DNA of 64,000 nucleotides, taken from the IMG/VR virus record IMGVR_UViG_3300045988_028354. One strand, written 5' to 3'. Below, piece after piece: positions 3,723 through 60,225 of this stretch. The notes below the pieces were generated by a model that was not told the origin of the DNA, did no database searches, and saw only the letters and a program-made list of their open reading frames with translations. Numbering within the stretch: the first letter of the stretch is position 1; the number at the start of each line of letters is the position of its first letter. This DNA is from a virus. Made by a program: the position numbers and the translations under genes.

Positions 3723-3831
3723 AATTTTTAAGTTTTAAGTTGTTAAACATAAATTTGATTTTTAAAGTTATTCGTATATGGCCATATACATTAATAATGC
3801 TATAGTATCGTATTATTACTAATACAGAGAC

Positions 3832-19537: not shown

Positions 19538-21012
19538 CTTGCTTTTGTATTTTGGTCTCCACGAGATGGAGCCGGATTAGTTTTATCTCTTGACCTACGA
19601 GCAGATTGATTTTTATCATCTTGCCTTTGCTTCTTCTTAGTTCCCTCTTGAGGGTCTGAATTACCCTTAGCAAATTGGTCCTCAAGTGAAACTCTTGGTT
19701 CGTCTTCATCAGGAGAATCATAACCCATTGCCCAAGCATATTGGTCTTGGCTAATGATACCAGCCTTATATAATAAATCCAGATTTTGGATTTTATACTG
19801 AAGACCCTGTTGAACCTTAACTTCATCAGAGATAGTTGAAGTTCCCCATGATATCTTTATCCCCTTATTATCAAAGCCTGCCAGACGCAGTTCTAGAGAA
19901 TAAAGAAAATCTAATACATAAGTTACAAGCATTTGGATATTTTTTAACTGGCTGATTAACTTAGACAGCATTATACCCGTTGCTCCTTCTCCTGTTGTTG
20001 AACTAACTCCAATGAGGTTTCCATTAACTCCCAAACCATTTGCAACTGATTGCTGATTCATATTCCAGGGTTTCTCAATATTACCAAGTTCCTTGGTAGT
20101 TGAATTGAGTTTAAACTCATGGTCATCAATGTAACCAGTTACTATACCATCTTTCATACCATTACGAAGATTTCTTTTCAAATCTTTTAAGGTACGTTCA
20201 AGACGGGATTGATAAGCTTGTAAGCTTTCATTTGGATTCTGGTCTGGTTTAGTCATCTTAGCTTCCAAGAATCCTACCATACCAACCATTTCCATTATGT
20301 GTTTGAAGTTAACCTTCATATCATGTTGGCCTTTTAATGAATCCAATGCTGCCATAAATGGTGGAATCCCATAAGGTTCATCGGTATCATTAAACATACC
20401 AGCATACACATAAGTTTCTGGGTTTAGTTTAATATAATCTTGGTGCTTTACGAAGTAATTCTTATTCCTCTGGTAAGGAGAATATACTCCATTGTTCTCT
20501 CTTTTGAAAACAATGTTCTCGGGTCTAAGGAATAAGACTGTATCCAAACCATCCAACATATCATTAGGAACTCCTTCAACGGATATAGCTCCACTAACAA
20601 GGCATTGTACAATCATCTTATTAACTAGACCATCTATACCAGCAGTATACCTAGACCATTTCTTAGTAGCTTCAGTAAGATGTTTTCTCATCTTATCTGC
20701 TTCAGCATCTGAGTTGTTTGGGAATGTTACCGTATGACCAGTATTTGCCAACTTAAACATATCCTGCAAAGCAATGCCCATATCCGGATTTACCTTATAT
20801 AAATCACGAATCAAAGGGATTACTTCAACACGAAAAGAAGGATCTACCATTACGGTCATCCCTTTCAGAGTACTGAGTAAAGAGTTATCTTCATCTACTG
20901 ATACTCTACCAGGAGATATAGCAGCAGCTTTTGGCTTGCTTGGCTCCTTGTTTGATTCAGGAGGTGGGTCTTTCTTTCTACCCCAACTCCAATTAAAATT
21001 GAGCTTTTTCAT
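19534..21012 (-). CDS. portal protein (by position)
   Basis: 492 aa, directly downstream of terL with a 4-nt overlap. Basic C-terminal tail. Confidence 0.6.
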   Translation of the reverse strand: MKKLNFNWSWGRKKDPPPESNKEPSKPKAAAISPGRVSVDEDNSLLSTLKGMTVMVDPSFRVEVIPLIRDLYKVNPDMGIALQDMFKLANTGHTVTFPNNSDAEADKMRKHLTEATKKWSRYTAGIDGLVNKMIVQCLVSGAISVEGVPNDMLDGLDTVLFLRPENIVFKRENNGVYSPYQRNKNYFVKHQDYIKLNPETYVYAGMFNDTDEPYGIPPFMAALDSLKGQHDMKVNFKHIMEMVGMVGFLEAKMTKPDQNPNESLQAYQSRLERTLKDLKRNLRNGMKDGIVTGYIDDHEFKLNSTTKELGNIEKPWNMNQQSVANGLGVNGNLIGVSSTTGEGATGIMLSKLISQLKNIQMLVTYVLDFLYSLELRLAGFDNKGIKISWGTSTISDEVKVQQGLQYKIQNLDLLYKAGIISQDQYAWAMGYDSPDEDEPRVSLEDQFAKGNSDPQEGTKKKQRQDDKNQSARRSRDKTNPAPSRGDQNTKAR

Positions 21013-22517
21013 TTCGGTTGTACTATTACGTTAGTTTTTCCTTTTCTTATGTGATTACAGATTGCTTTACCGAATATAGAGTCATCTGCATATACATCCC
21101 CCTCTAGGTCTACATCTACTGTAGAATTATTAGCTCTATGCTTACCCATTGCAACTGGCCTACCTAAACCATCATATATGAAGGTATATGCTTCTTGAAC
21201 AAAGAAAGGGTCTTTAACAGTAATACTATCTTCTCGAATATCCTGTTCAAGTCCCTCTACAATAACAGAACGGTTCTTTTGTGTAGTTAACCATCCTGGA
21301 GATTTATCTACCTCAGGTCTAGATTTACCTTTCTTCTTAAGCATTTTCTGATAATAATACAGTTTAGGATAACCTTCAGTTTGAAGAGCAGAAGTTACTG
21401 CTAATCCAACATCATTGGATTCTGGAGCAATGGTAGCAAAGTTAAACAAATGCCCTGTATCTCCAAGTAACCTTGCATATTTATCTACTGAAAGTCTACC
21501 TTTGAATACTGCTTGTTCTTCTCCTTGTTTATCCATGCAAGTAAATGCAGAGTAGTCAGAAGACCTACCAGTTGAAACGTCAGCACCAATGAAATATTCC
21601 TTATCTGGTGCTGGTTCTAAGAATTGCCGATATTGACCATTGAATCTTTTCTTAATAACTGGATAATCACTAAGACAGTCTTCGATAGCTTTGATATCAG
21701 CTAAGTCGAAGACCGTATTTCCAGATGATAAGAAGTCACCATCGATTTCTTGTGCAGTTCTTTTTGTTCCAAGAGCAGAAGACATTTCATTGTACCAATT
21801 AATGTCTCGTTCTGGGTGCATTTGCCAATACAATCGTAGTGGGTTAAATGGGTTTCCACCTGCAATGGCATCAACCCAAGTTGAGTGGTAGAAGTTACCA
21901 ACTCCATAAGGAGTGGAATTGATGATAGCAGCTCCACCAGTGGAAAGAGTAGGAAAAGCGGCTGCCCAAATCTGGGCTGCCCATCTAACTACTGCTGCTT
22001 CATCAATTACCAGTAAGGATAGAGATTCTGAACGACCGGCTTCTGAAGACGTTGGGATAGATTCTATGAATGAGCCATTATCGAACTCTATCATTGATGC
22101 AGAACCATATTCTCCCGAACGACCATTTATAATCGGTGTCTGTAAATACCATGGCAGGTTTTTGTACATGAACTTAATCTTCTTAAGTACCTTCTTTGCT
22201 GTTGTGTCCTTGATTGAGATAATGTTAATCTTCTTGTTAGGATGATACATTGCCAACCATAGGCAGTACATAGATATAAGCTCCGTAATACCTGCCTGCC
22301 TGAACTTAAGCAGAATATTGAAACGTTCTTTTACGAAGTTATACAGAACCGATTTTTGATACGGGTAAAGTTCAAATCTTACCTTTCCCCTCATAGGGTG
22401 TATCACATAAGTGAAAAGGCTAAAGTAAAAAACATCATTACTAACCTTAGCAAGTGTTGCTAGTTCTTCCCTTGTGAGAGCAGATGTGTTAGTTTCTATG
22501 TTAATCTTCTTTGCCAT
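21009..22517 (-). CDS. terL: terminase large subunit
   Basis: Walker-A-like LLKFRQAGITE, Walker B LSLLVIDEAA, C-terminal nuclease-size domain. The track start at 22523 is TTG; the first ATG (MAKKINIE) is at 22517, 2 nt after the upstream stop. Confidence 0.85.
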   Translation of the reverse strand: MAKKINIETNTSALTREELATLAKVSNDVFYFSLFTYVIHPMRGKVRFELYPYQKSVLYNFVKERFNILLKFRQAGITELISMYCLWLAMYHPNKKINIISIKDTTAKKVLKKIKFMYKNLPWYLQTPIINGRSGEYGSASMIEFDNGSFIESIPTSSEAGRSESLSLLVIDEAAVVRWAAQIWAAAFPTLSTGGAAIINSTPYGVGNFYHSTWVDAIAGGNPFNPLRLYWQMHPERDINWYNEMSSALGTKRTAQEIDGDFLSSGNTVFDLADIKAIEDCLSDYPVIKKRFNGQYRQFLEPAPDKEYFIGADVSTGRSSDYSAFTCMDKQGEEQAVFKGRLSVDKYARLLGDTGHLFNFATIAPESNDVGLAVTSALQTEGYPKLYYYQKMLKKKGKSRPEVDKSPGWLTTQKNRSVIVEGLEQDIREDSITVKDPFFVQEAYTFIYDGLGRPVAMGKHRANNSTVDVDLEGDVYADDSIFGKAICNHIRKGKTNVIVQPK

Positions 22518-23411: not shown

Positions 23412-24416
23412 CTAGACCCTTTTGATACATCGCCTAAACCAAATCCCAACTTCATATACTGAACCCTTGGCAATTGTATACCTTGCCTTGTTTAACCAAT
23501 AAAGGTAATTCTCTTGGTCAATGTAAATCTTAAACTGTTTAGGAAATCCCATGATTGCCTTGAAATCATTAATCCCAAGAGGATACCCATCAGGTCTAAA
23601 TTGCCTATCTGCAGGTCTTAAAGTTAAAGGTGGTTTATCTAACTCCAATCGATATACTCCTGGGAGAGTACTCATCTTAGCAGTTTTAATGGGCCATTTC
23701 TTCTCTTGCTTGAAAGCACTATTCCATAATACTTGAATCTTCTCAACAGTTAGATTCTTCTTTTCCGGAAGCTTTCGATAGTCATACATTGCAAGGGTCT
23801 TTTCTATCGGGATGTTATAATTACTCCCGTAAGGAGATACAAAGAGTAAATCTCTAGTAAGTTTTGGAGCTTTTACTTGGAATACTTCATCAAAAGCATT
23901 CAAGTATTTCTTACCGGTTTTCTTATGCACTCCAATGACAATTAAACGTTTCCTTGATACTTGGGAGTTCCCATAGTCAGAAACTGACCTTTCATGAAAA
24001 ATAAGTTTATAGTCCTTAAAGGTTTCCTCAAAGAATTCACAAGGAAGTAAAGATAGCAAACGAGGAAGATTTTCAATAAGAAAAATCTTAGGCTTATATT
24101 CTAATATTGCAGCAGTTACTAGATTTAAACTCCTGTTATCCTTAGGATTACCCAATTCTTTTACCTTTGAAAGCCTCATAATTGAAGCTATCCCGCAATC
24201 TGGGGAAGCAACCACAATATCTACTTTCTCATCAAATTCTTGTAAACAAAATCCCCTATAAAAGGGTATATCCCCAAAGTTTAACTTCCATTGACTCTCG
24301 CAACTAGTATGAAATACTCCTCTTGGTTCAATATTGGCTAGTATTTTATATTTCTTACTATGTAAAAATGGAAATAATAACGCCCCTTGGGCGGCTGAAA
24401 CACCTAATATATTCAT
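23412..24416 (-). CDS. DNA cytosine-5 methyltransferase-like protein
   Basis: 334 aa. FLIENLPRL (motif VI ENV-like), SDYGNSQVSRKRLIVIG (motif VIII DYG.PQ.R.R), FKAIMGFPKQF (motif IX GFP..F). Motif IV reads ASPDCG instead of the canonical PCQ. Confidence 0.65.
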   Translation of the reverse strand: MNILGVSAAQGALLFPFLHSKKYKILANIEPRGVFHTSCESQWKLNFGDIPFYRGFCLQEFDEKVDIVVASPDCGIASIMRLSKVKELGNPKDNRSLNLVTAAILEYKPKIFLIENLPRLLSLLPCEFFEETFKDYKLIFHERSVSDYGNSQVSRKRLIVIGVHKKTGKKYLNAFDEVFQVKAPKLTRDLLFVSPYGSNYNIPIEKTLAMYDYRKLPEKKNLTVEKIQVLWNSAFKQEKKWPIKTAKMSTLPGVYRLELDKPPLTLRPADRQFRPDGYPLGINDFKAIMGFPKQFKIYIDQENYLYWLNKARYTIAKGSVYEVGIWFRRCIKRV

Positions 24417-28355: not shown

Positions 28356-28383
28356 AAGGGACAAATAAAAATGTTTGTCCCTT
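28356..28383. terminator. bidirectional hairpin terminator at the convergence point
   Basis: Perfect 10-bp stem aagggacaaa / tttgtccctt, 8-nt loop, T-rich runs on both sides. Confidence 0.65.
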
Positions 28384-28732: not shown

Positions 28733-29221
28733 TTACTTGAAATTCTTAACAATATTCAAACCTTTTGTAAGAACTTCTTTTTTTGTGTCCTTTGTATTTT
28801 CGCTTGCAATAGACGCAAAAGAAAAATCATGAATTTTATAAACTTGCTTATAAAAATCGTTGAAAGCTGAAACAAGTGTTTTTAATTCATTTTGTTTCTT
28901 TTCTTCTTTTGCTTTGCAAATCGAATCAAGCAAAGAAAAAGTTGTATTTCTCAACTTTTTTCGATATGCTTTCTTTTGCTTTTCGTTCAATTCAGCAAAC
29001 AGAGATTCAACATAAATTTCTGTTTTCTTTCCTAAAGAAGTTTTTAAAAGTCCGTTTGTTTTTTCATTTAGACTTTTAAAAATACTATCAACTGATAATT
29101 TAATAGTGCTATTTGCTTTTGCTTGCGCTTTTGCTTTATTTGCACTAACTTTGTTAATTTTGTTGTTAGCAACTTCTTTTTCTACTACTACATTCTTTAA
29201 TTCTTCCATAATAAAATACAT
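28733..29221 (-). CDS. lysine-rich hypothetical protein (AT-rich island)
   Basis: 162 aa (alternative ATG at 29209). K-rich, with EKQKKAYRKKLR resembling a motif in 40351..40854 and 43624..44169. Confidence 0.6.
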   Translation of the reverse strand: MYFIMEELKNVVVEKEVANNKINKVSANKAKAQAKANSTIKLSVDSIFKSLNEKTNGLLKTSLGKKTEIYVESLFAELNEKQKKAYRKKLRNTTFSLLDSICKAKEEKKQNELKTLVSAFNDFYKQVYKIHDFSFASIASENTKDTKKEVLTKGLNIVKNFK

Positions 29222-29378
29222 TTAGTTTTTAAGTTTATTTTATTATATCCTTTTCTCTATAAAACTAAATGATTTATAAGAAAAAGAGAAAAGGAATATT
29301 TAAATTAAATTGTTTCAAAATGTCAAACGATAAAATACTATCAATACAAAAGTAGTTTTTATCTCTCTTTCTGTATTA

Positions 29379-29409
29379 CAAAGATACAACTTATATTTTA
29401 ATCTACAAA
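29379..29409 (-). promoter_or_regulatory. Bacteroidota-type promoter, proximal copy
   Basis: Minus strand TTTTGTAG-N-TATCTTTG (plus caaagata 29379..29386, caaa 29406..29409). Confidence 0.5.
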
Positions 29410-29480
29410 ATTTTTAGAGAATTTTTTCTTTAAAAATAGTTAATCAAAATTTTAAATATCTCTTTGCTTTTTCAACACTA

Positions 29481-29511
29481 CAAAGATAAGAAATATCTTT
29501 GAATCTACAAA
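29481..29511 (-). promoter_or_regulatory. Bacteroidota-type promoter, distal duplicated copy
   Basis: Same arrangement 102 bp upstream (caaagata 29481..29488, caaa 29508..29511), with similar flanks. Confidence 0.5.
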
Positions 29512-29728
29512 ACATTTATAGAAAAATTTTTGAGAAATTTTTAAAGAATTATTTTTAATAATTTTGCATGAAAAATTTGCAAGTAGGTTTTAGGGGTTTG
29601 AATTGGGGGCATGGTTGTGGGTAGGTAATATAGGTATATTGATGGATATAGGGAAGGGGTTGGTATAGGTACCACTTTAGAAAAAAGAAGGCCCCATACA
29701 GTCCGGTAGATATTATCTGTATATTATC

Positions 29729-29749
29729 ATACATAAAGGCCATTAGGTG
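29729..29749. repeat. GGCC-core 20-mer, copy A
   Basis: catacataaaggccattaggt. Compare 30903..30923 and 31068..31088. Confidence 0.6.
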
Positions 29750-29873
29750 ACTAGCAGGCTTTTATACCAATGCCATGGGCCATGTAGGGAGTCCTAAAGA
29801 ACTAAGGCCTATATTAGGACATGGGTAAGCCTTAGCAAGTCCAATGATGGCCTAGAGTTAGGTTACATAAGAA

Positions 29874-29902
29874 AAGCCCAGTACCTAAGATAGGCTGGGC
29901 TT
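29874..29902 (-). terminator. intrinsic terminator
   Basis: Perfect 8-bp stem aagcccag / ctgggctt. Minus-strand RNA is followed by UUUCUU. 27 nt after the stop of 29929..30261. Confidence 0.65.
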
Positions 29903-29928
29903 ATAGGGTGTAACATAGTTAGCGATAG

Positions 29929-30261
29929 TTAATCCTTGAAGATATAGAAGGTAACACCATCGAAGATATAGGTATCTTCTGCCATAGAGGTATCGGCCAT
30001 GGGTTCATCCTGTAACCTATTGAAGGTAAAGTATTCCTCATCTGTATTATAGTATACCAGGATTTCTGGTTTAGGTTCCCTTAGGTAAGCCTCTAGGGCA
30101 ATGAAGGGGTTCTCTTTATCGGGTATAGGTACATAGCCAGTGAAGTTATTATCATAGGTATTATGTATGAAATTGTACCATGAGTAATAATAGTTATAGG
30201 TACATAGATATCCCATTAGGGCATTAATAGCAATTTGTGGGTTAATTTGACTTGTTCTCAT
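29929..30261 (-). CDS. hypothetical protein
   Basis: 110 aa, ATG checked. Confidence 0.6.
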   Translation of the reverse strand: MRTSQINPQIAINALMGYLCTYNYYYSWYNFIHNTYDNNFTGYVPIPDKENPFIALEAYLREPKPEILVYYNTDEEYFTFNRLQDEPMADTSMAEDTYIFDGVTFYIFKD

Positions 30262-30273
30262 AATGGTAATGTT

Positions 30274-30735
30274 TTAGCAAGTGAAAGGTACAATAATAGT
30301 GAATAGACCGTTAAGGTATTTGATTTGAGGACTATGGTTAAAGCAAGCTTCGGAGTCGTATGGGAAGCATTCCTTGAAGGTATCAGTTAGTGTATCTATC
30401 ATGGATGGTTCGTAGTCCATAAGGTTTGGAGTTTTTAAAGCAAAGGTCCATATATGGATTCCCTCATAGTCCCGTTCCTTAGTTTCGATGGATATAAGTT
30501 GAACGTAGGGAGCAATAGTAGCAAGATATGCAATATGAGGAGTAATGTACTCTAGCATGCCTAATTGGTATTGGTCTAGAGGTTGATTGTCTTCTTGGTC
30601 AATTTCCAGTTTGGATAAATGAATAATAGGGCAAAGGTTATCCAGGTCTTTGGCATTAGGTTGATAGCCCCAATTAAGTTGATGATTAAGGATTTGAGCA
30701 TGGGTTAATTCAGTCTTAATTAAATTTGTTTTCAT
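30274..30735 (-). CDS. hypothetical acidic protein
   Basis: 153 aa, ATG 29 nt downstream of the -7 box. Confidence 0.6.
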   Translation of the reverse strand: MKTNLIKTELTHAQILNHQLNWGYQPNAKDLDNLCPIIHLSKLEIDQEDNQPLDQYQLGMLEYITPHIAYLATIAPYVQLISIETKERDYEGIHIWTFALKTPNLMDYEPSMIDTLTDTFKECFPYDSEACFNHSPQIKYLNGLFTIIVPFTC

Positions 30736-30763
30736 ATCTATATATTTTTAATTGTTTATACTG

Positions 30764-30806
30764 CAAATATAGACATTTTTATTTAAATATGCAAATCCTA
30801 CTGAGG
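30764..30806 (-). promoter_or_regulatory. Bacteroidota-type promoter with CCTCAG box
   Basis: Minus strand CCTCAGTAGGATTTGCATATTTAAATAAAAATGTCTATATTTGCAG; box offset 37. Confidence 0.65.
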
Positions 30807-30902
30807 CCCTTAATGGATAATGTCTTATAGCTCTATAACTTATTAATAATCAAAGAGTTACATAATCCATATCTCTTCTAGCCATTATTAGTTTCTTTCT
30901 AA

Positions 30903-30923
30903 CTAAATATAAGGGCCATTAAT
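30903..30923. repeat. GGCC-core 20-mer, copy B
   Basis: ctaaatataagggccattaat. Confidence 0.6.
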
Positions 30924-31067
30924 AACATACTTACTAGTTTTAGGTACCCCTAACAGCCTACATTTTTAATATAATCCCAATAAATTTGATGGCCATGAAT
31001 GGTATATTTTAATGCCTAATCCCCAAATCCTATTGCCTAATCCTAACTAATTTCTATATAATATATA

Positions 31068-31088
31068 CTAATATAAAGGGCCATTAGG
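31068..31088. repeat. GGCC-core 20-mer, copy C
   Basis: ctaatataaagggccattagg. Confidence 0.6.
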
Positions 31089-31344
31089 AGTCTAGGATTA
31101 AGGGGATTTAGGTACCCATATGGGCCTTAGTTGTGGGCCTTTTAGGCAATGGGTCATAATGACCAAAGGCTATGAGACTGATATGTTAGATAGCTATAGA
31201 GTAGTGGTGTTGTATAGTGATAGGGGGGCTAGGCCTAGAAGTTTGCCTTAATCCCAACACCCCCGGAAGGCCTTCAATATTGTATTAGTTATATGTATAT
31301 TGATTATTATTATATTAGGTATGTGTATTATGTAACATAGTTAG

Positions 31345-31373
31345 GCCCAGTATGATTTTGTTTTATACTGGGC
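31345..31373. terminator. hairpin, strand assignment ambiguous
   Basis: Perfect 9-bp stem gcccagtat / atactgggc. Lies 37 nt after the stop of 31410..31592 on the minus strand, but the U-rich tail (tttagtatttatttt) is on the plus strand. Confidence 0.5.
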
Positions 31374-31409
31374 TTTAGTATTTATTTTGATATTTGTTTT
31401 TGTTTGGGG

Positions 31410-31592
31410 TTAGGTGTATCTTAGGATTACAGTTTCTAATAGGATTAGTAGGATTATCTGTAGACCTTGTAGGATTAAGTATATGTATTTTTGTTTGTTG
31501 GTGGGGTTTGGTATTTGATGGTATATCTTATCCCTGTGGGTTAATGATAACCAGGTATATAAGATTACTGGGATTAGTAGTAGGGTTTTCAT
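31410..31592 (-). CDS. possible 60-aa two-TM membrane protein
   Basis: MKTLLLIPVILYTWLSL...IYLILQGLQIILLILLETVIL. Its ATG overlaps the stop of 31589..31753 as ATGA. The TAATCC repeats here read as L-I-L codons. Confidence 0.45.
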   Translation of the reverse strand: MKTLLLIPVILYTWLSLTHRDKIYHQIPNPTNKQKYIYLILQGLQIILLILLETVILRYT

Positions 31593-31753
31593 TTCCTTTT
31601 CTGTTTTAATTTGTTTTGGGTACGTAGGTGCTTGTTGAAGGTTGCACCTGAGTCCGTGTAGTAATTGGGGTTTGGTTTACCTGGAGTAGGAAAGTGTTCA
31701 TTCCATTTATCCTGGTGAGGTATGTATACTTGGTTCTTGGATTTCTTTTTCAT
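31589..31753 (-). CDS. possible 54-aa basic protein (not in ORF track)
   Basis: Hand-translated MKKKSKNQVYIPHQDKWNEHFPTPGKPNPNYYTDSGATFNKHLRTQNKLKQKRK. ATGA overlap with the stop of 31750..31998. Confidence 0.4.
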   Translation of the reverse strand: MKKKSKNQVYIPHQDKWNEHFPTPGKPNPNYYTDSGATFNKHLRTQNKLKQKRK

Positions 31754-31998
31754 AGGTCTAATATTGCGGTTTTGAATCCTATTGATGTTAGTTCTTGGGT
31801 TTGGATATGTACGATTTCGAAGTATTCCTTGATACCTTGTAGAGAATAGAATTGTAATACTCCTCCGTCTCCATATTCAGCATTTACCTGGTCTATGATT
31901 TCCTCATAAGCCTTGTCTTGGTTATCATTTAGTGAATGGTAGATATCTTGGACTTGGCCCTCTTCTACGATTACTAAGGTTGTGATTTTTAGTTTCAT
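31750..31998 (-). CDS. hypothetical acidic protein
   Basis: 82 aa, ATGA overlap with the upstream gene. Confidence 0.6.
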   Translation of the reverse strand: MKLKITTLVIVEEGQVQDIYHSLNDNQDKAYEEIIDQVNAEYGDGGVLQFYSLQGIKEYFEIVHIQTQELTSIGFKTAILDL

Positions 31999-32258
31999 TT
32001 TCCGTAATGTTTTAGTTCTTGGTTATACTCTGGGTATTTTTTCTCGTAGTAGTCATAGAGATATTGGTATTCGTCATCTCCTGACCAGCAATCAAGGAAG
32101 TAATCATATTGGTCCTCGGTTGCCTGTGATGGGTGTATGTGCAATGTATACTTGCAGTAGTGTTCCCATACTGTTTTAGGTTGGAATTTATTGGTAGGGA
32201 AAGCCATGACTACTAGAGCCATGGCAATTGATGTTAGGATTATAAGTTTAGTTCTCAT
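31995..32258 (-). CDS. hypothetical protein with N-terminal signal/TM segment
   Basis: 87 aa, LIILTSIAMALVVMAF near the N-terminus, ATGA overlap. Confidence 0.6.
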   Translation of the reverse strand: MRTKLIILTSIAMALVVMAFPTNKFQPKTVWEHYCKYTLHIHPSQATEDQYDYFLDCWSGDDEYQYLYDYYEKKYPEYNQELKHYGK

Positions 32259-32761
32259 TTGATAAGGGATTTGAAAAAGTTGATAGTATTTTCAGTGAAA
32301 GTGTAAAGAGTTTCTGGTTTTTCGAGAAAGTTAAGGTAATATTCGATTTCCTCGGCATGTTCTTCCTCGTTGAAATTATCCTTGTAGTATTGGAATTTTT
32401 CCATGATAAGTGGTTTGTATTTTTCCTGTTCAAGGATAAGAGTTGCACCGTAGAGTACCATGTCTACTTCGTCTACGTTATAATCGAAGTATTGGTCATC
32501 GCAGCCTCTGAGCAAATCCATTTGATTGAGGATTTCCATTAGGTCAAGTTCCAGGGATTCCTTATCGGCATAGGTATATACCCAGAGCATTTCGAGTGAA
32601 TAATCCGATATCTCCTCGTAATGTGGGTCATCCTCGGCAATTTCGAAGTCATATGTATTTTGAGCATGTGACATAGGCATTTGACCTTGGATAGAGATAA
32701 TATGATAGGGATTTTGTGCAATGATTGATGCAAGAACTGAGGTTGAATTTAATGTTGTCAT
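32255..32761 (-). CDS. strongly acidic hypothetical protein
   Basis: 168 aa, D/E/Y-rich. Confidence 0.6.
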   Translation of the reverse strand: MTTLNSTSVLASIIAQNPYHIISIQGQMPMSHAQNTYDFEIAEDDPHYEEISDYSLEMLWVYTYADKESLELDLMEILNQMDLLRGCDDQYFDYNVDEVDMVLYGATLILEQEKYKPLIMEKFQYYKDNFNEEEHAEEIEYYLNFLEKPETLYTFTENTINFFKSLIK

Positions 32762-32788
32762 GATGTTATAAGTTTTTATTGGTTAATA

Positions 32789-33034
32789 TTAATTGTTAGC
32801 GATTTGATTGTTGAATGTTGTTTGGTCATCGGCATCAGGCCAACCCATGGATTCCTCCATGTATTCGGTAGTATAATCGATAATGGTTGCAGCATCGTCT
32901 TTGTTAATTGTAGCAACCTCGGCTTCGATTTCCCGTTGGATTTGGTCGTAGTGATAAGCAAATGACCTCCGTATGCGTGCAGCAATTCCGGGGTATTTTT
33001 TAAATAATTCGATTAATTTACTTTCTTCATTCAT
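32789..33034 (-). CDS. hypothetical acidic protein
   Basis: First ATG at 33034 (MNEESKLIEL...). The track start at 33061 is TTG and lies inside the -7 box. Confidence 0.6.
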   Translation of the reverse strand: MNEESKLIELFKKYPGIAARIRRSFAYHYDQIQREIEAEVATINKDDAATIIDYTTEYMEESMGWPDADDQTTFNNQIANN

Positions 33035-33058
33035 AACGTCTATTTTTAAATGTTTATG

Positions 33059-33111
33059 CAAATATAAGAATAATATTTTAAATATGCAATAACCCCGATT
33101 ACTTACTGGAG
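33059..33111 (-). promoter_or_regulatory. Bacteroidota-type promoter with CTCCAG box
   Basis: Plus caaatata at 33059..33066, gcaat at 33086..33090, ctggag at 33106..33111; offset 47. Confidence 0.6.
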
Positions 33112-33333
33112 CCTTATAAGGTCAACTATTTCGATGGAAGAGTATGGCATACCTATAAGTTCTGAGATTATCCTTTTAGTATGATATACATGAAGGTGGT
33201 TAGGATTTAGTTTTACCCTTGGGAATATTAAGTATGGCCTTAGTTCCTCAGTTCTATAGGTTATGATTAATTCTTCGCAGAACTTTTCGTTTTGGCAATC
33301 AAAGGATACTAAAAATTTGGACTGTTCTAGCAT
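33103..33333 (-). CDS. hypothetical protein
   Basis: ATG at 33333 (MLEQSKF...). The track start at 33351 is TTG. Confidence 0.55.
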   Translation of the reverse strand: MLEQSKFLVSFDCQNEKFCEELIITYRTEELRPYLIFPRVKLNPNHLHVYHTKRIISELIGMPYSSIEIVDLIRLQ

Positions 33334-33458
33334 ACTATTAATATTAAGCAATGAGTATTCTCATAAGTTAAAGGTTCTTCGCTAGTAGGATGGGAGGATG
33401 CACCCATTATTAGGATAATTCCTCCCATGACTAAGATAAGTATAATATTAGGCTTCAT
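33327..33458 (-). CDS. possible 43-aa membrane peptide (not in ORF track)
   Basis: Hand-translated MKPNIILILVMGGIILIMGASSHPTSEEPLTYENTHCLILIVC. Overlaps both neighbours by 7-11 nt and fills the 33334..33447 gap. Confidence 0.4.
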   Translation of the reverse strand: MKPNIILILVMGGIILIMGASSHPTSEEPLTYENTHCLILIVC

Positions 33459-33765
33459 GTGATTCACGATGGGTACATAAGTCCTCAATTAAGTCTTCGA
33501 CAGTATCCTCCCAGGAATCATATCCATCAAGGTTGTATTCGGCAATGAAGGTAAAGAATGTATCTCCAAATAATAATCGTAAGACTTTGTCTGTTAGGGT
33601 TTCGTCTTCGTCATATAGTTTGTTCTCTTCCTCATTGGAAAGTTCTGTATCTCCATTTAGGATAACCGAGATTTGTTGCAGTCTGAGTAAATACCCATTA
33701 AGAGTATCAAGGTCCTCTTTAGACCTTGTCTCTTGGAATTTAAGATAAGTCTTTGATGGTGTCAT
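33448..33765 (-). CDS. acidic hypothetical protein
   Basis: 105 aa, D/E-rich. Confidence 0.6.
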   Translation of the reverse strand: MTPSKTYLKFQETRSKEDLDTLNGYLLRLQQISVILNGDTELSNEEENKLYDEDETLTDKVLRLLFGDTFFTFIAEYNLDGYDSWEDTVEDLIEDLCTHRESHEA

Positions 33766-33767
33766 AG

Positions 33768-34193
33768 TTAGTCCTCCTCTGATTTAATTTGTTGATTCAA
33801 GGGTATGTATGGTTCAGCAGGTAATTCTTCAGCAAGTACTGATATGAATCCTTCCGGGTATAAGGTATATAAGATTCGATATCCATAATCTGAATGTGGC
33901 AAGAATACATCCATAATGTTTTTGAGTAATGGGTATAGCTTCCATTGGTTATCCTCTAGGAATCGTTTCCATTCATCCATTTCGCTAGCATCATAGTTAG
34001 CAGTTAATTGAATGTGATAACGTTGTGTTTCCGTATCGATTGGGATAAATAGGTTGGTGACTACCTCAATTTCGTTTGAAGGCTTTTTGTATTGAGTAAT
34101 TGGATACCAGATACCTTCGTTTTTCCATTGATTGAGCTGGAATATTGTCATCCCAGATTCAAGTAAGTTGGTGAGTTTGTAAAGATTAACCAT
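33768..34193 (-). CDS. hypothetical protein
   Basis: 141 aa, first gene after the promoter at 34240. Confidence 0.6.
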   Translation of the reverse strand: MVNLYKLTNLLESGMTIFQLNQWKNEGIWYPITQYKKPSNEIEVVTNLFIPIDTETQRYHIQLTANYDASEMDEWKRFLEDNQWKLYPLLKNIMDVFLPHSDYGYRILYTLYPEGFISVLAEELPAEPYIPLNQQIKSEED

Positions 34194-34239
34194 GTTGTTG
34201 TCTATTTTAAAATGAATAAATATATTTTATTTCTCATTA

Positions 34240-34282
34240 CAAAGATAAGAATAATAAATAATATATGCAAATATAACTGAGG
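34240..34282 (-). promoter_or_regulatory. Bacteroidota-type promoter with CCTCAG box
   Basis: Minus strand CCTCAGTTATATTTGCATATATTATTTATTATTCTTATCTTTGTAATG; offset 37. Confidence 0.65.
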
Positions 34283-34283
34283 T

Positions 34284-34320
34284 AGAGGCAGGCTCTTAGT
34301 TAGGTTAGAGTCCTGCCTCT
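34284..34320 (-). terminator. strong hairpin at the cassette end (no U-tract)
   Basis: agaggcagg(ctc) / (gag)tcctgcctct, 9 + 3 bp with one bulge. Confidence 0.4.
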
Positions 34321-34343
34321 GGGATAGATATGAAAACAACTGG

Positions 34344-34766
34344 TTAATCGTCGTTAAGGGAACCCTCATTTAAAGTTTCATTAAGTACCTCATTAAGGAG
34401 TTCTGCACGTTGTTCTTTTGATAGGCCATCCAGTGTTCCTTTGATTCTCTCCTTTAATGCCTTTTTAAGAGTATTTTGGTACTGATTGATAAAGGTAATT
34501 GAAGAGATTGGTACTGGTATGAGTACTCTCATTTGTGTAGTATGATTACATCTGTCAAGTAATTCTGATAACTCTTTACGGTTATCCAAAGAATGTTGAA
34601 TAACCATGGCAATTACATCTGGTTGTTGAACATCGGTACATCCAGAAGCATAGCGTACGATTCTATCAAATGTTGACTCGGTAATGTCAAATGGCATTCC
34701 GTTTAAAAATGGTTCCTTGAAGTCAGGGTCCATGGTCTCTGTTTCTAAAATAGCTCTAATTGTCAT
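34344..34766 (-). CDS. hypothetical protein
   Basis: 140 aa, ATGA overlap. Confidence 0.6.
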   Translation of the reverse strand: MTIRAILETETMDPDFKEPFLNGMPFDITESTFDRIVRYASGCTDVQQPDVIAMVIQHSLDNRKELSELLDRCNHTTQMRVLIPVPISSITFINQYQNTLKKALKERIKGTLDGLSKEQRAELLNEVLNETLNEGSLNDD

Positions 34767-34945
34767 TCTTCTACTTCTCCTATGTTGTTAGCAAGTAAAT
34801 AATCGTAGTACAAGTGTACGTTAGTATCTCCATAAGTCCTAATATAGGATTCAGCATCCTCTGGGTCTGCTGAGACCCAGGGATATTCTTGTATCTGTGC
34901 CTGGTGTAATTGTAAGGCCAGAGATTTTAATTCTTCTTTGTTCAT
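34763..34945 (-). CDS. hypothetical small acidic protein
   Basis: 60 aa, ATGA overlaps on both sides. Confidence 0.55.
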   Translation of the reverse strand: MNKEELKSLALQLHQAQIQEYPWVSADPEDAESYIRTYGDTNVHLYYDYLLANNIGEVEE

Positions 34946-35322
34946 GATATTCTGAAATTAAGTTGGTAAATCCAATTGTTTTTATCCAGCTTGGTGAACG
35001 AGATAAATATAGCATCACCATCGGTAAAGCTTTGCATAAATTTAATGCAGCCATCGGCAATGAGGTTTTCTCTTTGTCTATCTACTGTAATTAGGCTTTC
35101 AAATGTGAAAGTATAATAGCAGGTTTCGTATGCCCAGATTTGATTGATATCAATGCAGGCCAATTGATAGTTATCGTATATCTTACTGAGCAGTTCAAAT
35201 AAGATATCCTTTAGGTTCTCGTTTTCCTCTTCTGTAAGAGAGAAAGTGTTTTTGTTAGCAAGGAATCTTTTAAGTACCTCGTCCAAGTTCTGGATAGAGG
35301 ATTTAGATGTTGTTGTTTTCAT
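34942..35322 (-). CDS. hypothetical protein
   Basis: 126 aa, ATG 27 nt after the -7 box. Confidence 0.6.
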   Translation of the reverse strand: MKTTTSKSSIQNLDEVLKRFLANKNTFSLTEEENENLKDILFELLSKIYDNYQLACIDINQIWAYETCYYTFTFESLITVDRQRENLIADGCIKFMQSFTDGDAIFISFTKLDKNNWIYQLNFRIS

Positions 35323-35348
35323 ATTTTTATTGTTTAATTATTACACTA

Positions 35349-35411
35349 CAAATATAAGCATTTTATTTTAAATATTACTTTATTCATGCAATTATTTTTA
35401 AATAGCTGAGG
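35349..35411 (-). promoter_or_regulatory. promoter with CCTCAG box
   Basis: Plus caaatata at 35349..35356 and ctgagg at 35406..35411; offset 57. Confidence 0.6.
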
Positions 35412-35425
35412 TTCTGCACACAAGA

Positions 35426-35450
35426 AAAGGCAGTTGGTTAGACTGCCTTT
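35426..35450 (-). terminator. intrinsic terminator
   Basis: Perfect 9-bp stem aaaggcagt / actgccttt. Minus-strand RNA is followed by UUUUCUUGUG. Confidence 0.65.
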
Positions 35451-35467
35451 GATTCATTGTTTGGTTA

Positions 35468-35899
35468 TTAATCCCGAGGATAAGGTTTCTTCTTTTTGAA
35501 AGGTTTTACTTCCCGGGTAACTTCTTGTTTATAGAAAGCATCAATGTTTGAATGAAGCATTTCTATTGTCTCCGGGGTTATTGTATCCTTTGAACTGTAT
35601 AGAGTTTCGTAGATACTTTCCCATAGTTCATTTACCAGATGCTTTCTAATGTCTTCTTTGACATCAGATTCTGGTTCAAACTTGATAGCAACTGTAACAT
35701 GGTCAATGTGATCTCCTTCTAATAGAAGACCTTTGAATCTGGATAGGTCATCAGGAGCATTTAGGTTATCGTTCAGGAACCTTTCTATGCACATATCGCC
35801 TCGCATTAATTGTGAGGCATGTTCTGCTGAGATAGGGAATTCCTCTATGCCGAACATAGAATTTTCATTGTCTTCTGAGGTAAATACGATTTTTAGCAT
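35468..35899 (-). CDS. hypothetical acidic protein
   Basis: 143 aa, TAATG junction with the upstream gene. Confidence 0.6.
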   Translation of the reverse strand: MLKIVFTSEDNENSMFGIEEFPISAEHASQLMRGDMCIERFLNDNLNAPDDLSRFKGLLLEGDHIDHVTVAIKFEPESDVKEDIRKHLVNELWESIYETLYSSKDTITPETIEMLHSNIDAFYKQEVTREVKPFKKKKPYPRD

Positions 35900-36366
35900 T
35901 ATATTTTTGTTTTTAAACGGTTAATGACTTCTTTGTAGAATTGATTTATGAACTCAGGTTCAGGAGTTGAAGAACCTGGGTTAAGTTGTCTCCAATGGAA
36001 TCTCACGCTGTTCTTTATTTCAAGGGCAAGATTATTAGCAGCTAAATCAAAGGCATCGTTGTATTGAACAATCTGTAAGAGATTGCTTACGCATTTGCTA
36101 GCATCTCCCAATGGTATGGCTTGTTCAATCATTTCGAATCCGTCTTCGTAAATCTCTACTGTATCAATGTAAATGTCATCTATATGGTTAAGAGCATTGA
36201 TTAGGTCTACCGTATTAACGGTATCATCATCGTCCAGTTCATTGGTAATTCTGAAGGCTTGGATAAAAGCATCTAGGATTCCCTGCATATCGGGGTCCTG
36301 TTCCTTAAGTGGAATACGTCTAATGATTCCAACTTGTTCGAAGGTTAAGTAATACTTGGTTTGCAT
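35899..36366 (-). CDS. hypothetical acidic protein
   Basis: 155 aa. Confidence 0.6.
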   Translation of the reverse strand: MQTKYYLTFEQVGIIRRIPLKEQDPDMQGILDAFIQAFRITNELDDDDTVNTVDLINALNHIDDIYIDTVEIYEDGFEMIEQAIPLGDASKCVSNLLQIVQYNDAFDLAANNLALEIKNSVRFHWRQLNPGSSTPEPEFINQFYKEVINRLKTKI

Positions 36367-36400
36367 GGTTATAAAATTTTAATAGTTTATTAATTCATTA

Positions 36401-36463
36401 CAAATATAAGAAATATATTTATATCTGCAAAAGAATTAATAAACTATTTAATAATTACTGGGG
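36401..36463 (-). promoter_or_regulatory. promoter with CCCCAG box
   Basis: Plus caaatata at 36401..36408, gcaaaa at 36427, ctgggg at 36458..36463; offset 57. Confidence 0.6.
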
Positions 36464-36775
36464 TAGAGCCCGGAATCTGTTTAAGTCCCAATCGTACTTT
36501 CTGTCTCCCTTATTAGTAAATACCCAAAGGTAATGGTCTTTGTATTCCTTTGATATGGTATTATACTTAGAGGTCTGAATGATGATACGATTTGGTTCGT
36601 ATTCAAGTAATTCTGCATGTACTGTAGATACATGATGACTTTCAAGATTAAGTTTGGCCTTGAAGTCTTTAAGGAACTCATCTCGGTTTACACCATAGTT
36701 ATCTCCCACGAATTTAATGTAATCGTCCTCTACCTGTTCTAACATGGTAGATACCTTGAATCTAAACTTGTTCAT
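36455..36775 (-). CDS. hypothetical protein
   Basis: The track start at 36832 is TTG. ATGs lie at 36823, 36775 and 36745; 36775 (MNKFRFKV...) is chosen because it gives a 14-nt overlap. Confidence 0.5.
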   Translation of the reverse strand: MNKFRFKVSTMLEQVEDDYIKFVGDNYGVNRDEFLKDFKAKLNLESHHVSTVHAELLEYEPNRIIIQTSKYNTISKEYKDHYLWVFTNKGDRKYDWDLNRFRALPQ

Positions 36776-37692: not shown

Positions 37693-37745
37693 CAAATATA
37701 ATACTTTTAAATTTAATATGCAAATCCGTATATACACAACTGAGG
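37693..37745 (-). promoter_or_regulatory. Bacteroidota-type promoter with CCTCAG box
   Basis: Minus strand CCTCAGTTGTGTATATACGGATTTGCATATTAAATTTAAAAGTATTATATTTGCATATC; offset 47. Confidence 0.65.
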
Positions 37746-37766
37746 CCACCATTAATAGGTAGCCTC
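37742..37766 (-). terminator. hairpin at the cassette end (no U-tract)
   Basis: gaggccacc / ggtagcctc, 8 of 9 bp. Its 3-prime arm contains the CCTCAG box. Confidence 0.4.
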
Positions 37767-42158: not shown

Positions 42159-42211
42159 CAAATATAAGAATTTTATTTTATATAATAATACACTTTTAAT
42201 ATAAACTGAGG
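42159..42211 (-). promoter_or_regulatory. promoter with CCTCAG box
   Basis: Plus caaatata at 42159..42166 and ctgagg at 42206..42211; offset 47. The box lies inside the HNH coding sequence. Confidence 0.6.
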
Positions 42212-42690
42212 TAGAGGATCTTTCGTAGGGCAGACCTTGAGAGGTTATACTCTTTTGTTAATTCATTAATAGTTGACCCAAGAGTAAATTTTCTACGTAT
42301 TATTTCTCGGTCTATATTCTTTACTTTAGCTCTAGGATTTTTATCTCCAATGTATCCTCTACCATCTCGTATACATTGCTGAGTATTTTCAGAAGGTGTA
42401 CCCCAATATAGATTACTTACCGAATTATGATGGGGTACATTATCCTTATGACATACATAGGCCTTGTTTTCTGGATTAGGTATATAAACCCTAGCAACTA
42501 ACCTATGTATATAATGTATCTTTCCACGCCTTTGAATAAACTTATATCCTTGTTTAGAAGTATTATATTTAACCCTATGCCAAGAATCTTTAGTAATATG
42601 ACCTGACTTATCATATCTACTCCAAAGTCTTCCTTTCTTACTTATAAAGTATCCTTCTAGAAAGGGTATGTTATCATTTTTGATTATCAT
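42196..42690 (-). CDS. free-standing HNH homing endonuclease
   Basis: YVCHKDNVPHHNSVSNLYWGTPSENTQQCIRDGR plus a C-terminal HTH-like tail. ATG at 42690 (the track start at 42696 is TTG). Paralog of 24419..24943. Confidence 0.8.
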   Translation of the reverse strand: MIIKNDNIPFLEGYFISKKGRLWSRYDKSGHITKDSWHRVKYNTSKQGYKFIQRRGKIHYIHRLVARVYIPNPENKAYVCHKDNVPHHNSVSNLYWGTPSENTQQCIRDGRGYIGDKNPRAKVKNIDREIIRRKFTLGSTINELTKEYNLSRSALRKILYLSLY

Positions 42691-52739: not shown

Positions 52740-53430
52740 GAAGAAAATCAATAATAAGTTTCTTACGAATATCCAAATTAGCTTCTCTTATACAGAGAAC
52801 TTTAGTTTCACCATATATGGATTTGATTACTCCCTCTGTTGCACCGTATTCCAAGAGTTGATTCTTAAAAATGTTCTTATAAATAGAAGATATTTCCTTA
52901 GTAGGTAAGAATCCCCACAAGTTCAATACGTTATCCATTATAGAAGATATTAAGAACTGGAAGTAATTGTTATCTATTCGTTTACCATTATCTTCCATAA
53001 CCCATTCCTTTACCATGGCAGTAGTAAAGTCTAATAGGATAAGATGAGTACATTGTTGATTGAGTAACATCTTGCAAGTTTCGAAAAAGTGTTCCATTTC
53101 ACATTTAGGAACATTCTTGGCTTGCTTGTAATAGAAATAGGCAGCTAAATCAAGATAGCTTCTATCTGTAACAAATCTATCCCTATCTCTGAACATTTTG
53201 TTTCTTAGGTTCATTACCTGAAAATCTTCGAGTAACAAATCCTTTGAATCCCTTTCTAACATCTCTTTATGAGACATATCCTTTGTTTTAGGTATTAAGT
53301 CTGATACACTACCAGATATAAAATCCAATACTGGAGGGTATTCTGTTACATCAAACTTAATCATCCCGGGAACTTCTTTTGCTAAAGTGGTTTTCCCAAC
53401 TCCACTTGCACCTGCAAACATTATTTTCAT
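52732..53430 (-). CDS. P-loop nucleoside/nucleotide kinase-like protein
   Basis: GASGVGKTT Walker A at the extreme N-terminus, plus VTDRSYLDLAAYF resembling the DRS/ERS box of the dNK/AAA_28 kinase family. Confidence 0.45.
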   Translation of the reverse strand: MKIMFAGASGVGKTTLAKEVPGMIKFDVTEYPPVLDFISGSVSDLIPKTKDMSHKEMLERDSKDLLLEDFQVMNLRNKMFRDRDRFVTDRSYLDLAAYFYYKQAKNVPKCEMEHFFETCKMLLNQQCTHLILLDFTTAMVKEWVMEDNGKRIDNNYFQFLISSIMDNVLNLWGFLPTKEISSIYKNIFKNQLLEYGATEGVIKSIYGETKVLCIREANLDIRKKLIIDFLHE

Positions 53431-60170: not shown

Positions 60171-60225
60171 ATTAATAAATAGAAAGAGGGACATACCTAC
60201 ATGTAGTAGATACATCCCTCTAATG

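Follow-up and report, generated by a model that had tools for sequence, protein, structure and literature searches.

Two conserved, GGCC-rich non-coding patches as candidate early-region control DNA of a Flandersviridae-like phage

The locus described here raises the question of what reads the word GGCC, which is crowded into two ORF-free patches of a phage genome. The patches (29560-29928 and 30790-31409, together 989 nt) lie in a window of 64,000 nt, the whole stretch of viral DNA that was analysed. From its gene content, its relatives of 85-87 kb and its Bacteroidetes promoters, we infer that the window belongs to a Flandersviridae-like Bacteroidales phage. Members of this proposed family have a genome of ~85 kb with a structural block, a replication module with PolA and ~20 kb of unknown ORFs, and a Bacteroidales host. 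In human gut samples they match the crAss-like phages in prevalence; no member has yet been cultured, and roughly a quarter of the genome is without assigned function (PMC8008677).

GGCC words and repeats in the two patches

All 14 GGCC positions listed in a preliminary description of the window were correct: five lie in patch 1 (29560..29875; GGCC at 29690, 29738, 29778, 29806 and 29849), eight in patch 2 (30796..31342; GGCC at 30805, 30914, 30991, 31079, 31123, 31136, 31232 and 31269) and one at 31344. Both patches are ORF-free and conserved, and neither is assigned a strand. When the count was set against the rate outside the patches, the proposed enrichment was borne out (14 GGCC in 989 nt versus 0.75 predicted; Poisson P=9e-14), and local base composition gave an expectation of ~0.5 GGCC per patch. 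The word CCGG, which is identical in composition, was not enriched, with 2 copies in the patches and 85 outside (GGCC versus CCGG, Fisher P=7e-5, odds ratio 12.9). GGCC had been called sporadic elsewhere; over the whole window it is neither rare nor common (61 copies versus ~64 expected by base composition). A fifteenth copy is found at 29995, within the 110-aa gene described below. A general enrichment of palindromes was rejected as the source of the signal, given that it amounted to only ~4 versus 1 per kb and was driven by GGCC itself. The stems of intrinsic terminators were likewise rejected, as a G+C-rich stem with a T-run was found at only one of the 14 sites (31344). No relevant report was found in the literature on GGCC in the intergenic DNA of Bacteroides phages.

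The flanks of the sites are A/T-rich and follow, loosely, the pattern W-A-R-GGCC-Y-T-W. Shared flanks had been noted earlier, and a half-site of roughly W-A-R-GG was indeed recovered, but the preference is weak: A occupies position -2 at 61-68% of the patch GGCC, compared with 35-37% at GGCC elsewhere. The half-site preferences are symmetric and palindromic contexts occur, which indicates a vocabulary that is independent of strand; patch 2 holds the palindromes ATGGCCAT, CCCATATGGG, CTAGGCCTAG and GAAGGCCTTC. A perfect palindrome reported outside the patches, GTATATGGCCATATAC, exists as well, although at 3774-3789 rather than 3773-3788. According to a weight matrix, very little information is held beyond the 4-bp GGCC core. 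An extended operator-like motif was therefore rejected, the matrix being weak and failing to separate patch sites from coding sites. As the extended motif adds so little to the core, the pattern is not what one would usually expect of a sequence-specific regulator; a better fit is an enzyme that recognises 4 bp.

The preliminary description had also reported a 20-mer present three times. A repeat family does exist, but it consists of a degenerate motif of ~20 nt in four copies (29726-29745, 30902-30921, 30979-30998 and 31067-31086), which are 75-80% identical when aligned without gaps. A longer block on the minus strand, CTAGnnnCCTAATGGCC(C)TTTAT...TATA..AGA.AAT, occurs once in each patch (29712..29754 and 31050..31095; local alignment score 36), and the two copies are real paralogues across ~45 nt. 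An exact 14-mer, CTAACTATGTTACA, adjoins each of the terminator hairpins described below (29909..29922, minus strand; second copy 31331-31344). Moreover, ATATAGGCCTTAGTT at 29800..29814 on the minus strand is matched in inverted orientation (14/15) by 31118-31132 on the plus strand, and the pair brackets the gene cassette between the patches; an invertible segment between these two sites was rejected, as no inverted form was seen in ~40 relatives. Dispersed repeats of the REP/BIME or MITE type were also rejected, with no defined unit of 20-40 nt and with the block motifs absent elsewhere in the window. A search of 185,579 bacterial and archaeal genomes for a host or other genome carrying the patch gave one 18-mer match, in a Lewinella contig with unrelated flanks, and this was attributed to chance.

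Each patch fills the space from a terminator hairpin to the next host-type promoter. Between the patches lies a variable early gene cassette on the minus strand (29929..30735) with a 153-aa gene (30274-30735) and a 110-aa gene (29929-30261), both without a family match. Its promoter is a Bacteroidetes-type early promoter (30764..30795, minus strand; TTTG-N20-TATATTTG), preceded by a GGCCTCAGT box at 30800-30808. The two-gene cassette is closed by a terminator-type hairpin (29876..29903, minus strand), read from the sequence as an inverted repeat, AGCCCAG...CTGGGCT, followed by TTTTCTT; this hairpin is almost invariant among 77 sequences, with one compensatory pair. GGCC 31344 is held in a 13-bp hairpin (31343..31375), which follows the stop codon that ends the small-gene operon upstream and has a T-rich tail on the plus strand. 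The distal part of patch 1 (29560-29680) is C-rich and G-poor on the minus strand. Immediately downstream of patch 1 is an AT-rich region (29222..29554, minus strand; ~21% GC, and GC 0.21 over 29001-29500), which carries two tandem host-type promoters (29481-29511 and 29379-29409, minus strand) within a repeat of ~115 nt. Strong matches to the Bacteroidetes-type promoter consensus, TTTG-N19-20-TAnnTTTG, on the gene-carrying strand were all located at 29.4-37.7 kb, and the consensus scan found no host-type promoter inside the patches. None of the small proteins neighbouring the patches matches a DNA-binding family.

Conservation, cassette exchange and recurrence of GGCC

The preliminary description had proposed a check of patch conservation in related phages, and there the patches were found to be better conserved than the genes between them. 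Across 57 relatives, patch conservation was 0.70-0.97 (0.80-0.97 for patch 1 and 0.70-0.90 for patch 2), compared with 0.21-0.53 for the enclosed genes. Against 14 relatives, the identity of the patches was 0.84-0.99 in the alignable parts, values that are somewhat inflated by local alignment, and the third codon positions of flanking genes gave 0.67-0.94 in most of the same comparisons. Within the patches, GGCC positions were conserved at 0.94 versus 0.82 for the remaining sequence (permutation p 0.0013), which was not a general G/C effect; the GGCC positions of patch 1 reached 0.96-1.0. Frequent homogenising recombination at these joints could account for part of the patch conservation.

The genes around the patches are exchanged. 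In relatives, the cassette site is occupied by 128-138-aa proteins (27-28% identical) or by an unrelated 118-aa protein, and the cassettes are swapped at the patch borders. In three genomes (L011, L013 and L038), a 141-aa ORF stands in place of the distal half of patch 2 (~30812-31064), and in L011-type genomes the cassette breakpoint falls at the TAATGGCCCTTT core of the block at 31050..31095. Short invariant anchors separate haplotype blocks that are shuffled from genome to genome. In one contig, if it is circular, the two ends would meet so as to fuse patch 2 with patch 1, with loss of the cassette. Given that the patches are kept while the surrounding genes are replaced, they would also act as homologous joints for the exchange of early cassettes. 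The locus accounts for the tendency of assemblies of these genomes to break there.

The enrichment recurs where the sequence itself is not shared. In MT121964.1, whose capsid protein is 67% identical, the syntenic non-coding DNA can be aligned at promoters only, and GGCC is again its top-enriched 4-mer (14 versus 1.2, P=5e-11); several of these GGCC sites do lie in terminator stems. At 27 loci, from the MT121964.1-like clade and a smaller subclade, 4-9 GGCC per kb were counted 3-7 kb upstream of a methyltransferase gene, while CCGG remained flat. At 23 of these loci, 21 of the 26 GGCC lay in 2.8 kb of non-coding DNA, and GGCC was conserved at 0.76 versus 0.50 (p<0.0002). GGCC recurs at one map position in three clades; in two of them the DNA cannot be aligned, yet no word there is more enriched or better conserved.

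Candidate readings of the GGCC array

Our preferred reading, with a probability of roughly 45%, is that the patches are conserved cis-acting control DNA, in which a selected GGCC array would be read on double-stranded DNA by a protein and which would also provide the joint for cassette exchange. The selection on GGCC, its recurrence and the failure of RNA and coding explanations fit iterated sites read on DNA. The earlier proposal of iterated protein-binding sites is upheld to the extent that the GGCC words are individually selected in two independent clades and recur in relatives with non-alignable DNA; the binding of a protein at these sites, the identity of the reader and the process under control are what we infer from the sequences. 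Candidates for that process are early transcription, an origin, packaging, or methylation by the C5-methyltransferase of the family.

It is possible, though doubtful, that the array is a methylation-gated element, with GGCC as the target of the C5-methyltransferase of the phage and the clusters as an epigenetic mark that gates early promoters, replication or packaging, in the manner of the GATC clusters at the P1 pac site. Virion DNA would then be methylated and would become hemimethylated or unmethylated after replication. The window encodes a C5-cytosine DNA methyltransferase (PF00145; 23412..24416, minus strand), located upstream of the large terminase; no other candidate was found for an enzyme with a short recognition word like GGCC. 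It adjoins the terminase genes and is conserved in all three clades (contigs of 77-87 kb). All clades examined, however, carry the methyltransferase or were found through it. Its catalytic motif (PDC) is atypical, no relative was found in the PDB by sequence or profile, and the AlphaFold model was unusable (pLDDT 39.9). The recognised unit is apparently just 4 bp, as is typical of such enzymes, and GGCC has not been purged from the genome. GATC occurs 7 times in the window versus 190 times in MT121964.1, that is, restriction-site avoidance differs by clade, and the retention of the methyltransferase despite this difference hints at a role beyond anti-restriction. Variants that lose GGCC are mostly C-to-T changes at the outer C (10 site-variants versus 3 at the inner C), a weak bias; as it is only marginal (one-sided binomial p ~0.05), a deamination footprint at GGCC was rejected.

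A close parallel is the 161-bp pac site of P1, in which seven TGATCA/G hexamers (Dam sites) are present and the methylation state controls cleavage (PMC10028697). Both systems have a short palindromic word of the methylation type, iterated within a few hundred bp of cis-acting DNA, and a phage methyltransferase gene. Here, by contrast, the word is GGCC and the enzyme is of the C5 type, and the clusters are non-coding and spread over two patches and ~1 kb, at 6-8 kb from the terminase. GATC clusters akin to those of P1 pac are also present in E. coli oriC and P1 oriR. In a more specific and distinctly speculative version, the divergent, family-conserved C5-methyltransferase would write GGCC marks that the promoter-side arrays read out, and early transcription, replication or packaging would be timed by how incoming DNA differs from replicated DNA in methylation.

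It is unlikely that the patches are recombination linkers of the PeSL kind and nothing else, that is, terminator/promoter joints kept similar by cassette exchange, with GGCC as a by-product that has no reader of its own. PeSLs of T4-type phages are composite terminator/promoter elements of the hyperplastic early region, where they flank small variable ORFs without known function and serve as exchange points (PMC2839356; PMC4122927). The likeness is evident in the terminator hairpins and host-type promoters that flank the swapped cassettes, and the swapping at patch borders, the shuffled haplotype blocks, the paralogous blocks common to both patches and the cassette deletion implied by one contig's ends all speak for such linkers. 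PeSLs are expected in many dispersed copies that mediate indels between close relatives; in this window the block motifs occur only in the two patches, and a patch-to-patch deletion is suggested by one contig's ends. However, the patches, at 320-550 nt, exceed a promoter plus stem-loop in length by a factor of 5-10. They occupy one locus rather than many, and they carry a specifically conserved GGCC array with which PeSLs are not described. A linker alone would leave unexplained why GGCC is the best-conserved word within the patches, and why GGCC-rich, non-homologous DNA lies at the same place in other clades.

A replication origin, one of the functions suggested in the preliminary description, now appears rather improbable. 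The GGCC-core sites would bind an initiator, the AT-rich tandem-promoter region would unwind, and transcription would activate initiation. This is consistent with a conserved, essential-looking non-coding region beside 330 nt of ~21% GC with two strong promoters, with the presence of two site clusters, and with a T4-like set of recombination and replication genes (UvsX, SbcCD, RusA, SSB and PolA). Iterons, as in the iteron-type origins of phages and plasmids such as lambda ori and P4 ori/crr, are well defined and 8-22 bp long. The locus resembles these origins in its clusters of repeated sites beside an AT-rich segment and, like P4 with its ori and crr, has two clusters set apart from each other. 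It differs from them in that only 4 bp are fixed: iterons of normal length are absent, and the best repeat family is the four-copy motif described above, with weak flanks. Moreover, no initiator gene was found nearby, and the cumulative GC skew turns off the patches, at ~25.9 kb (minimum, 25,880) and 36.7 kb (local maximum, 36,674). The AT-rich segment is occupied by the tandem promoters, which explain its composition. The partition centromere suggested alongside the origin was not supported, as no partition genes were found among the ORFs scanned or in the description of the family (PMC8008677).

Readings at the level of RNA or protein fared worse. One or more functional ncRNAs on either strand, for example regulatory or anti-defence RNAs with GGCC segments pairing mutually, are improbable. 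The length and conservation of the patches do resemble those of large ncRNAs, folding energies were modestly below those of shuffled sequence (z = -1.7 to -2.8; both strands, single-sequence folds), the hairpin at 31343-31375 has its T-rich tail on the plus strand, and some variable segments could, by eye, each form a small hairpin. Against this, Rfam gave no matches at gathering thresholds in the whole window and none at E<=5 in 29200-31800, and ARAGORN found no tRNA or tmRNA. RNAalifold on 77 sequences returned a covariation term of -0.6 with compensatory changes at 3 of 47 pairs, and for patch 2 (40 sequences) none of the 25 predicted pairs on the minus strand and none of the 39 on the plus strand was compensatory. 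By eye, helices do not extend from GGCC:GGCC pairs; the patches lack an internal host-type promoter, and a strand-symmetric vocabulary that recurs in relatives without alignable sequence is not what an ncRNA would predict. A hidden gene by stop-codon recoding was rejected, since every frame contains 3-13 TAA plus TAG, and most also TGA, and with so many TAA recoding rescues no ORF. Also rejected were mini-ORFs starting at ATGGCC and a 62-aa ORF (29555-29743), which is broken by 1-nt indels in relatives. With no Rfam match, tRNA, recoded ORF or covariation, a structured RNA is not supported.

Very improbable, too, is a role in the initiation of headful packaging, with the patches as a pac region that the small terminase would recognise. 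Pac sites such as that of P1 typically contain short repeats in clusters, the contig ends of public assemblies gather here (5-6 of ~22 genome-length contigs), and Flandersviridae genomes assemble as closed circles, which is the behaviour of permuted genomes (PMC8008677). The patches, however, lie 6-8 kb from the terminase genes (terL 21009-22517) and are not in or beside the putative terS, and the contig ends are uninformative on genome ends or pac, since they map to the tandem promoter repeat and to mosaic segments, where assemblies break in any case. The first-step-transfer DNA of T5 contains a non-coding region with the injection stop signal. Like the T5 region, the locus is a large conserved stretch of non-coding DNA with repeats and palindromes beside host-transcribed early genes (pre-early in T5); neither fixed genome ends nor a two-step entry of the DNA is indicated here, however, and the resemblance goes no further.

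A possible role in the early region

Under the preferred reading, control DNA with a selected GGCC array, the patches would sit in the part of this Flandersviridae-like Bacteroidales phage genome that the host transcribes early, and the GGCC words would be individually selected recognition points for a reader protein from phage or host. The array would most likely set how active the neighbouring early promoters and terminators are, or mark the locus for another DNA transaction. The same patches may double as the homologous joints at which early cassettes exchange.

If the methyltransferase does write marks that the arrays read out, a 5-methylcytosine epigenetic gate would operate in a very prevalent family of human-gut phages, as a C5 counterpart of the Dam/GATC control at P1 pac; for the conserved methyltransferase, the GGCC array yields a concrete prediction. 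A kilobase of non-coding DNA is conserved above the genes inside it and bears a simple GGCC signature. This combination of high conservation and a simple, testable signature makes the locus the clearest handle so far on the early programme or the DNA transactions of this family.

Genome setting and anatomy of the patches

The G+C content of the window is 35.7%, and its minus strand carries nearly all genes. In minus-strand order, a replication and recombination module (PolA, 57879-60215; UvsX-like, 54292-55440; also SbcCD, RusA and SSB) is followed by about 6 kb of small unknown ORFs (36366 to 31410), the patch region, a short plus-strand cluster, a muramidase gene, the C5-methyltransferase gene (23412-24416), and then terL, portal, protease, capsid and very large tail genes. 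The module also holds dNMP-kinase-like, thymidylate-synthase-like and MazG-like pyrophosphohydrolase genes (52732-53430, 60226-60996 and 61897-62733), the products of which could jointly yield a modified nucleotide, and an HNH endonuclease gene (42196-42690) that is probably a mobile gene of the homing type. The size of relatives in IMG/VR and in other collections is 85-87 kb. Size, the order of the genes and the unknown-ORF block together lead us to infer that the phage is a member of the proposed family 'Flandersviridae', the hosts of which are Bacteroides and Parabacteroides (PMC8008677).

Bacteroidetes-type promoters (TTTG, 19-20 nt, TAnnTTTG) were found at six minus-strand places, all within 29.4-37.7 kb, and the patch locus was thus assigned to a host-transcribed early region. 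A (GG)CCTCAGT box, perhaps an upstream promoter element or else the target of a regulator, precedes the -33 TTTGCAT element of several early promoters by 3-15 nt (30800-30808 and 37739-37747), with weaker copies at about 33070-33090 and 34272-34285. The GC skew was positive at 29500-36500 (G>C on the plus strand, up to +0.29) despite the minus-strand genes there, so that early-gene coding strands are C-rich and G-poor; it was negative at 36.5-64 kb, where the genes lie on the same strand. A strong bidirectional terminator hairpin (28356-28383; AAGGGACAAA...TTTGTCCCTT) marks the junction of the minus-strand early genes and the plus-strand cluster.

At the locus itself, the end of the upstream small-gene operon (31410) is followed by a 13-bp hairpin (31375-31343), patch 2, a GGCCTCAGT box with a host-type promoter (30808-30764), the cassette of two early genes (153 aa, 30274-30735; 110 aa, 29929-30261), a hairpin with a T-run (29903-29876), patch 1, and, before the next gene, an AT-rich stretch that carries a tandem pair of host-type promoters (29511-29379), all in minus-strand order. 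The promoter unit at 29379-29511 is a tandem duplication of about 115 nt, the sequence of which differs among relatives and at which public assemblies are often broken. Both patches share a paralogous block of about 45 nt around CCTAATGGCC(C)TTTAT, an exact 14-mer beside each hairpin (CTAACTATGTTACA), a further block (ATCAATATAC) and an inverted 15-mer (ATATRGGCCTTAGTT); no such blocks were found in the rest of the window. The patches are non-coding, with many TAA stops in every frame, and because of these stops recoding gives no ORF and was ruled out. The sole sizeable ORF (62 aa) is broken in relatives by single-base indels.

GGCC enrichment and conservation of the sites

Of the 61 GGCC of the window, 14 lie in the ORF-free patches (29560-29928 and 30790-31409; 989 nt in all), compared with 0.75 predicted by the outside rate (P=9e-14) and about 0.5 per patch predicted by local base composition. 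The preliminary description had located these 14 copies, and every position was correct. For CCGG, which has the same composition, the counts were 2 inside the patches and 85 in the rest of the window (Fisher P=7e-5). Of the GGCC sites, just the one at 31344 forms part of a terminator stem. CCTA/TAGG, AGGC/GCCT, CCCC and GCCC were also enriched; TAGG richness continues into the adjoining genes, whereas GGCC richness stops at the patches. Related copies of a 20-mer described as present three times do exist, but as a degenerate motif (75-80% identity) rather than a fixed sequence. Likewise, a palindrome noted near 3.8 kb is perfect, but its true position is 3774-3789. This 16-bp sequence (GTATATGGCCATATAC) lies in a 109-nt gap between a 1346-aa gene and the next gene, and its flank score is unlike that of the patch sites.

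About 90 IMG/VR contigs were retrieved with two conserved patch words, and 57 distinct sequences were anchored on one 18-mer. The patches, whose conservation in related phages had been proposed as a check, were indeed conserved: identity to the window was 0.70-0.97 over both patches versus 0.21-0.53 over the genes between, which are poorly conserved because of cassette exchange. In relatives the place of the 153-aa protein is taken either by proteins of 128-138 aa with only 27-28% identity to it or by a 118-aa protein unrelated to it, and the 110-aa gene can be missing. In three genomes (L011, L013 and L038) the distal half of patch 2 gives way to a 141-aa ORF encoding a basic protein, and the breakpoint lies at the TAATGGCCCTTT core. 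Between the two anchors, all genomes compared had 9-15 GGCC. Among 14 relatives, patch identity (0.84-0.99, somewhat inflated by local alignment) was in most comparisons higher than third-codon-position identity of flanking conserved genes (0.67-0.94). GGCC positions were conserved at 0.94 versus 0.82 elsewhere in the patches (permutation p=0.0013), and no general extra conservation of G and C was seen there. The alignment consisted of variable segments, with haplotypes shuffled among genomes, separated by short invariant anchors that mostly contain GGCC.

Among relatives, one contig (L025/L094; IMGVR_UViG_3300013900_000001, 85,379 bp) has its start in patch 2 and its end in patch 1. If it is circular, the join GGCCCATATGC|GTATTGCC may reflect deletion of the whole cassette via exchange between similar GGCCCAT words; an assembly break is the alternative. 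Another relative (L002, 7110-7190) carries a tandem expansion, (TCCTTCCATATA)n, in the C-rich distal part of patch 1.

Among GenBank records the nearest is MT121964.1, from human faeces; it is syntenic, has a capsid protein 67% identical, and is alignable to the patch region at promoters only. Its non-coding DNA at the corresponding map position (1,280 nt) had GGCC as the top-enriched 4-mer (14 versus 1.2, P=5e-11); AGGC and CCTA were again enriched, and several GGCC sites lie in terminator stems. A further 59 loci were retrieved via its methyltransferase. Among them, 27 full-length loci had GGCC at a density of 4-9 per kb between 3 and 7 kb upstream of the methyltransferase gene and at a far lower one elsewhere, with CCGG flat. 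In 23 aligned loci, 21 of 26 GGCC fell within 2.8 kb of non-coding DNA and were conserved at 0.76 versus 0.50 at other non-coding positions (p<0.0002). Enrichment and site-level constraint are therefore reproduced in a second clade with different sequence; a third subclade, with a narrower GGCC peak, reproduces the enrichment alone.

Readings of the patches

The general idea of iterated DNA sites, advanced in the preliminary description, is the best-supported reading, given the GGCC enrichment and the site conservation in two clades. These facts point to selection acting on the word GGCC itself, at the patch map position and regardless of surrounding sequence, as would be expected if each copy were a site that a protein with very short, palindromic specificity recognises in double-stranded DNA. 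Since the patches closely follow terminators and precede the strongest host-type promoters, they may control early transcription units, a suggestion not ranked firmly over another DNA transaction.

A functional structured RNA is an unsupported, low-probability reading, because no Rfam match (even at E<=5) or tRNA was found, folding z-scores on both strands were only -1.7 to -2.8, covariation of predicted pairs was essentially nil, the patches contain no host-type promoter, no helices extend from the GGCC flanks, and word usage is symmetric between strands. The suggested replication origin was not borne out: iterons of normal size and a nearby initiator gene were lacking, and the GC skew, a check proposed earlier, turns at 25.9 and 36.7 kb, away from the patches. 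A partition centromere fared no better, with no partition genes among the scanned ORFs and none reported for the family (PMC8008677). Contig ends pile up at the locus as at a packaging site, but the tandem promoter repeat and mosaic DNA explain this. A dispersed repeat element was rejected since the motifs are limited to the patch locus; in 185,579 bacterial and archaeal genomes they were absent except for one chance match.

Candidate methyltransferase link and significance

The C5-methyltransferase gene, conserved in all three clades, was the sole gene found whose product class typically recognises a word like GGCC. The protein is highly divergent (catalytic motif PDC, not PC; Pfam E=8e-11); sequence comparison with solved structures gave no relative, and its AlphaFold model, built on a shallow alignment, was poor. 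Lost GGCC sites showed 10 outer-C versus 3 inner-C transitions, an only suggestive hint toward GGCC methylation. GATC is nearly absent from the window (7 versus about 207-239 expected), as are GCGC and CGCG (3 each versus 64 expected, zero order); in the 75.5 kb of MT121964.1 there are 190 GATC, and the host restriction systems acting on the two clades are therefore probably different. The methyltransferase is kept in all clades despite their sharply different avoidance of restriction sites. As the P1 pac site demonstrates (PMC10028697), an arrangement of methylation-type words is workable; a link between the methyltransferase and the GGCC array is a candidate reading.

Quite apart from any reader protein, the patches act like conserved joints within a hyperplastic region. 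In this they resemble the PeSLs of T4-type phages (PMC2839356; PMC4122927), but they are much longer and carry a GGCC array. The GGCC patches are a real, specific and evolutionarily maintained feature, and one that belongs to an abundant, uncultured family of gut phages.
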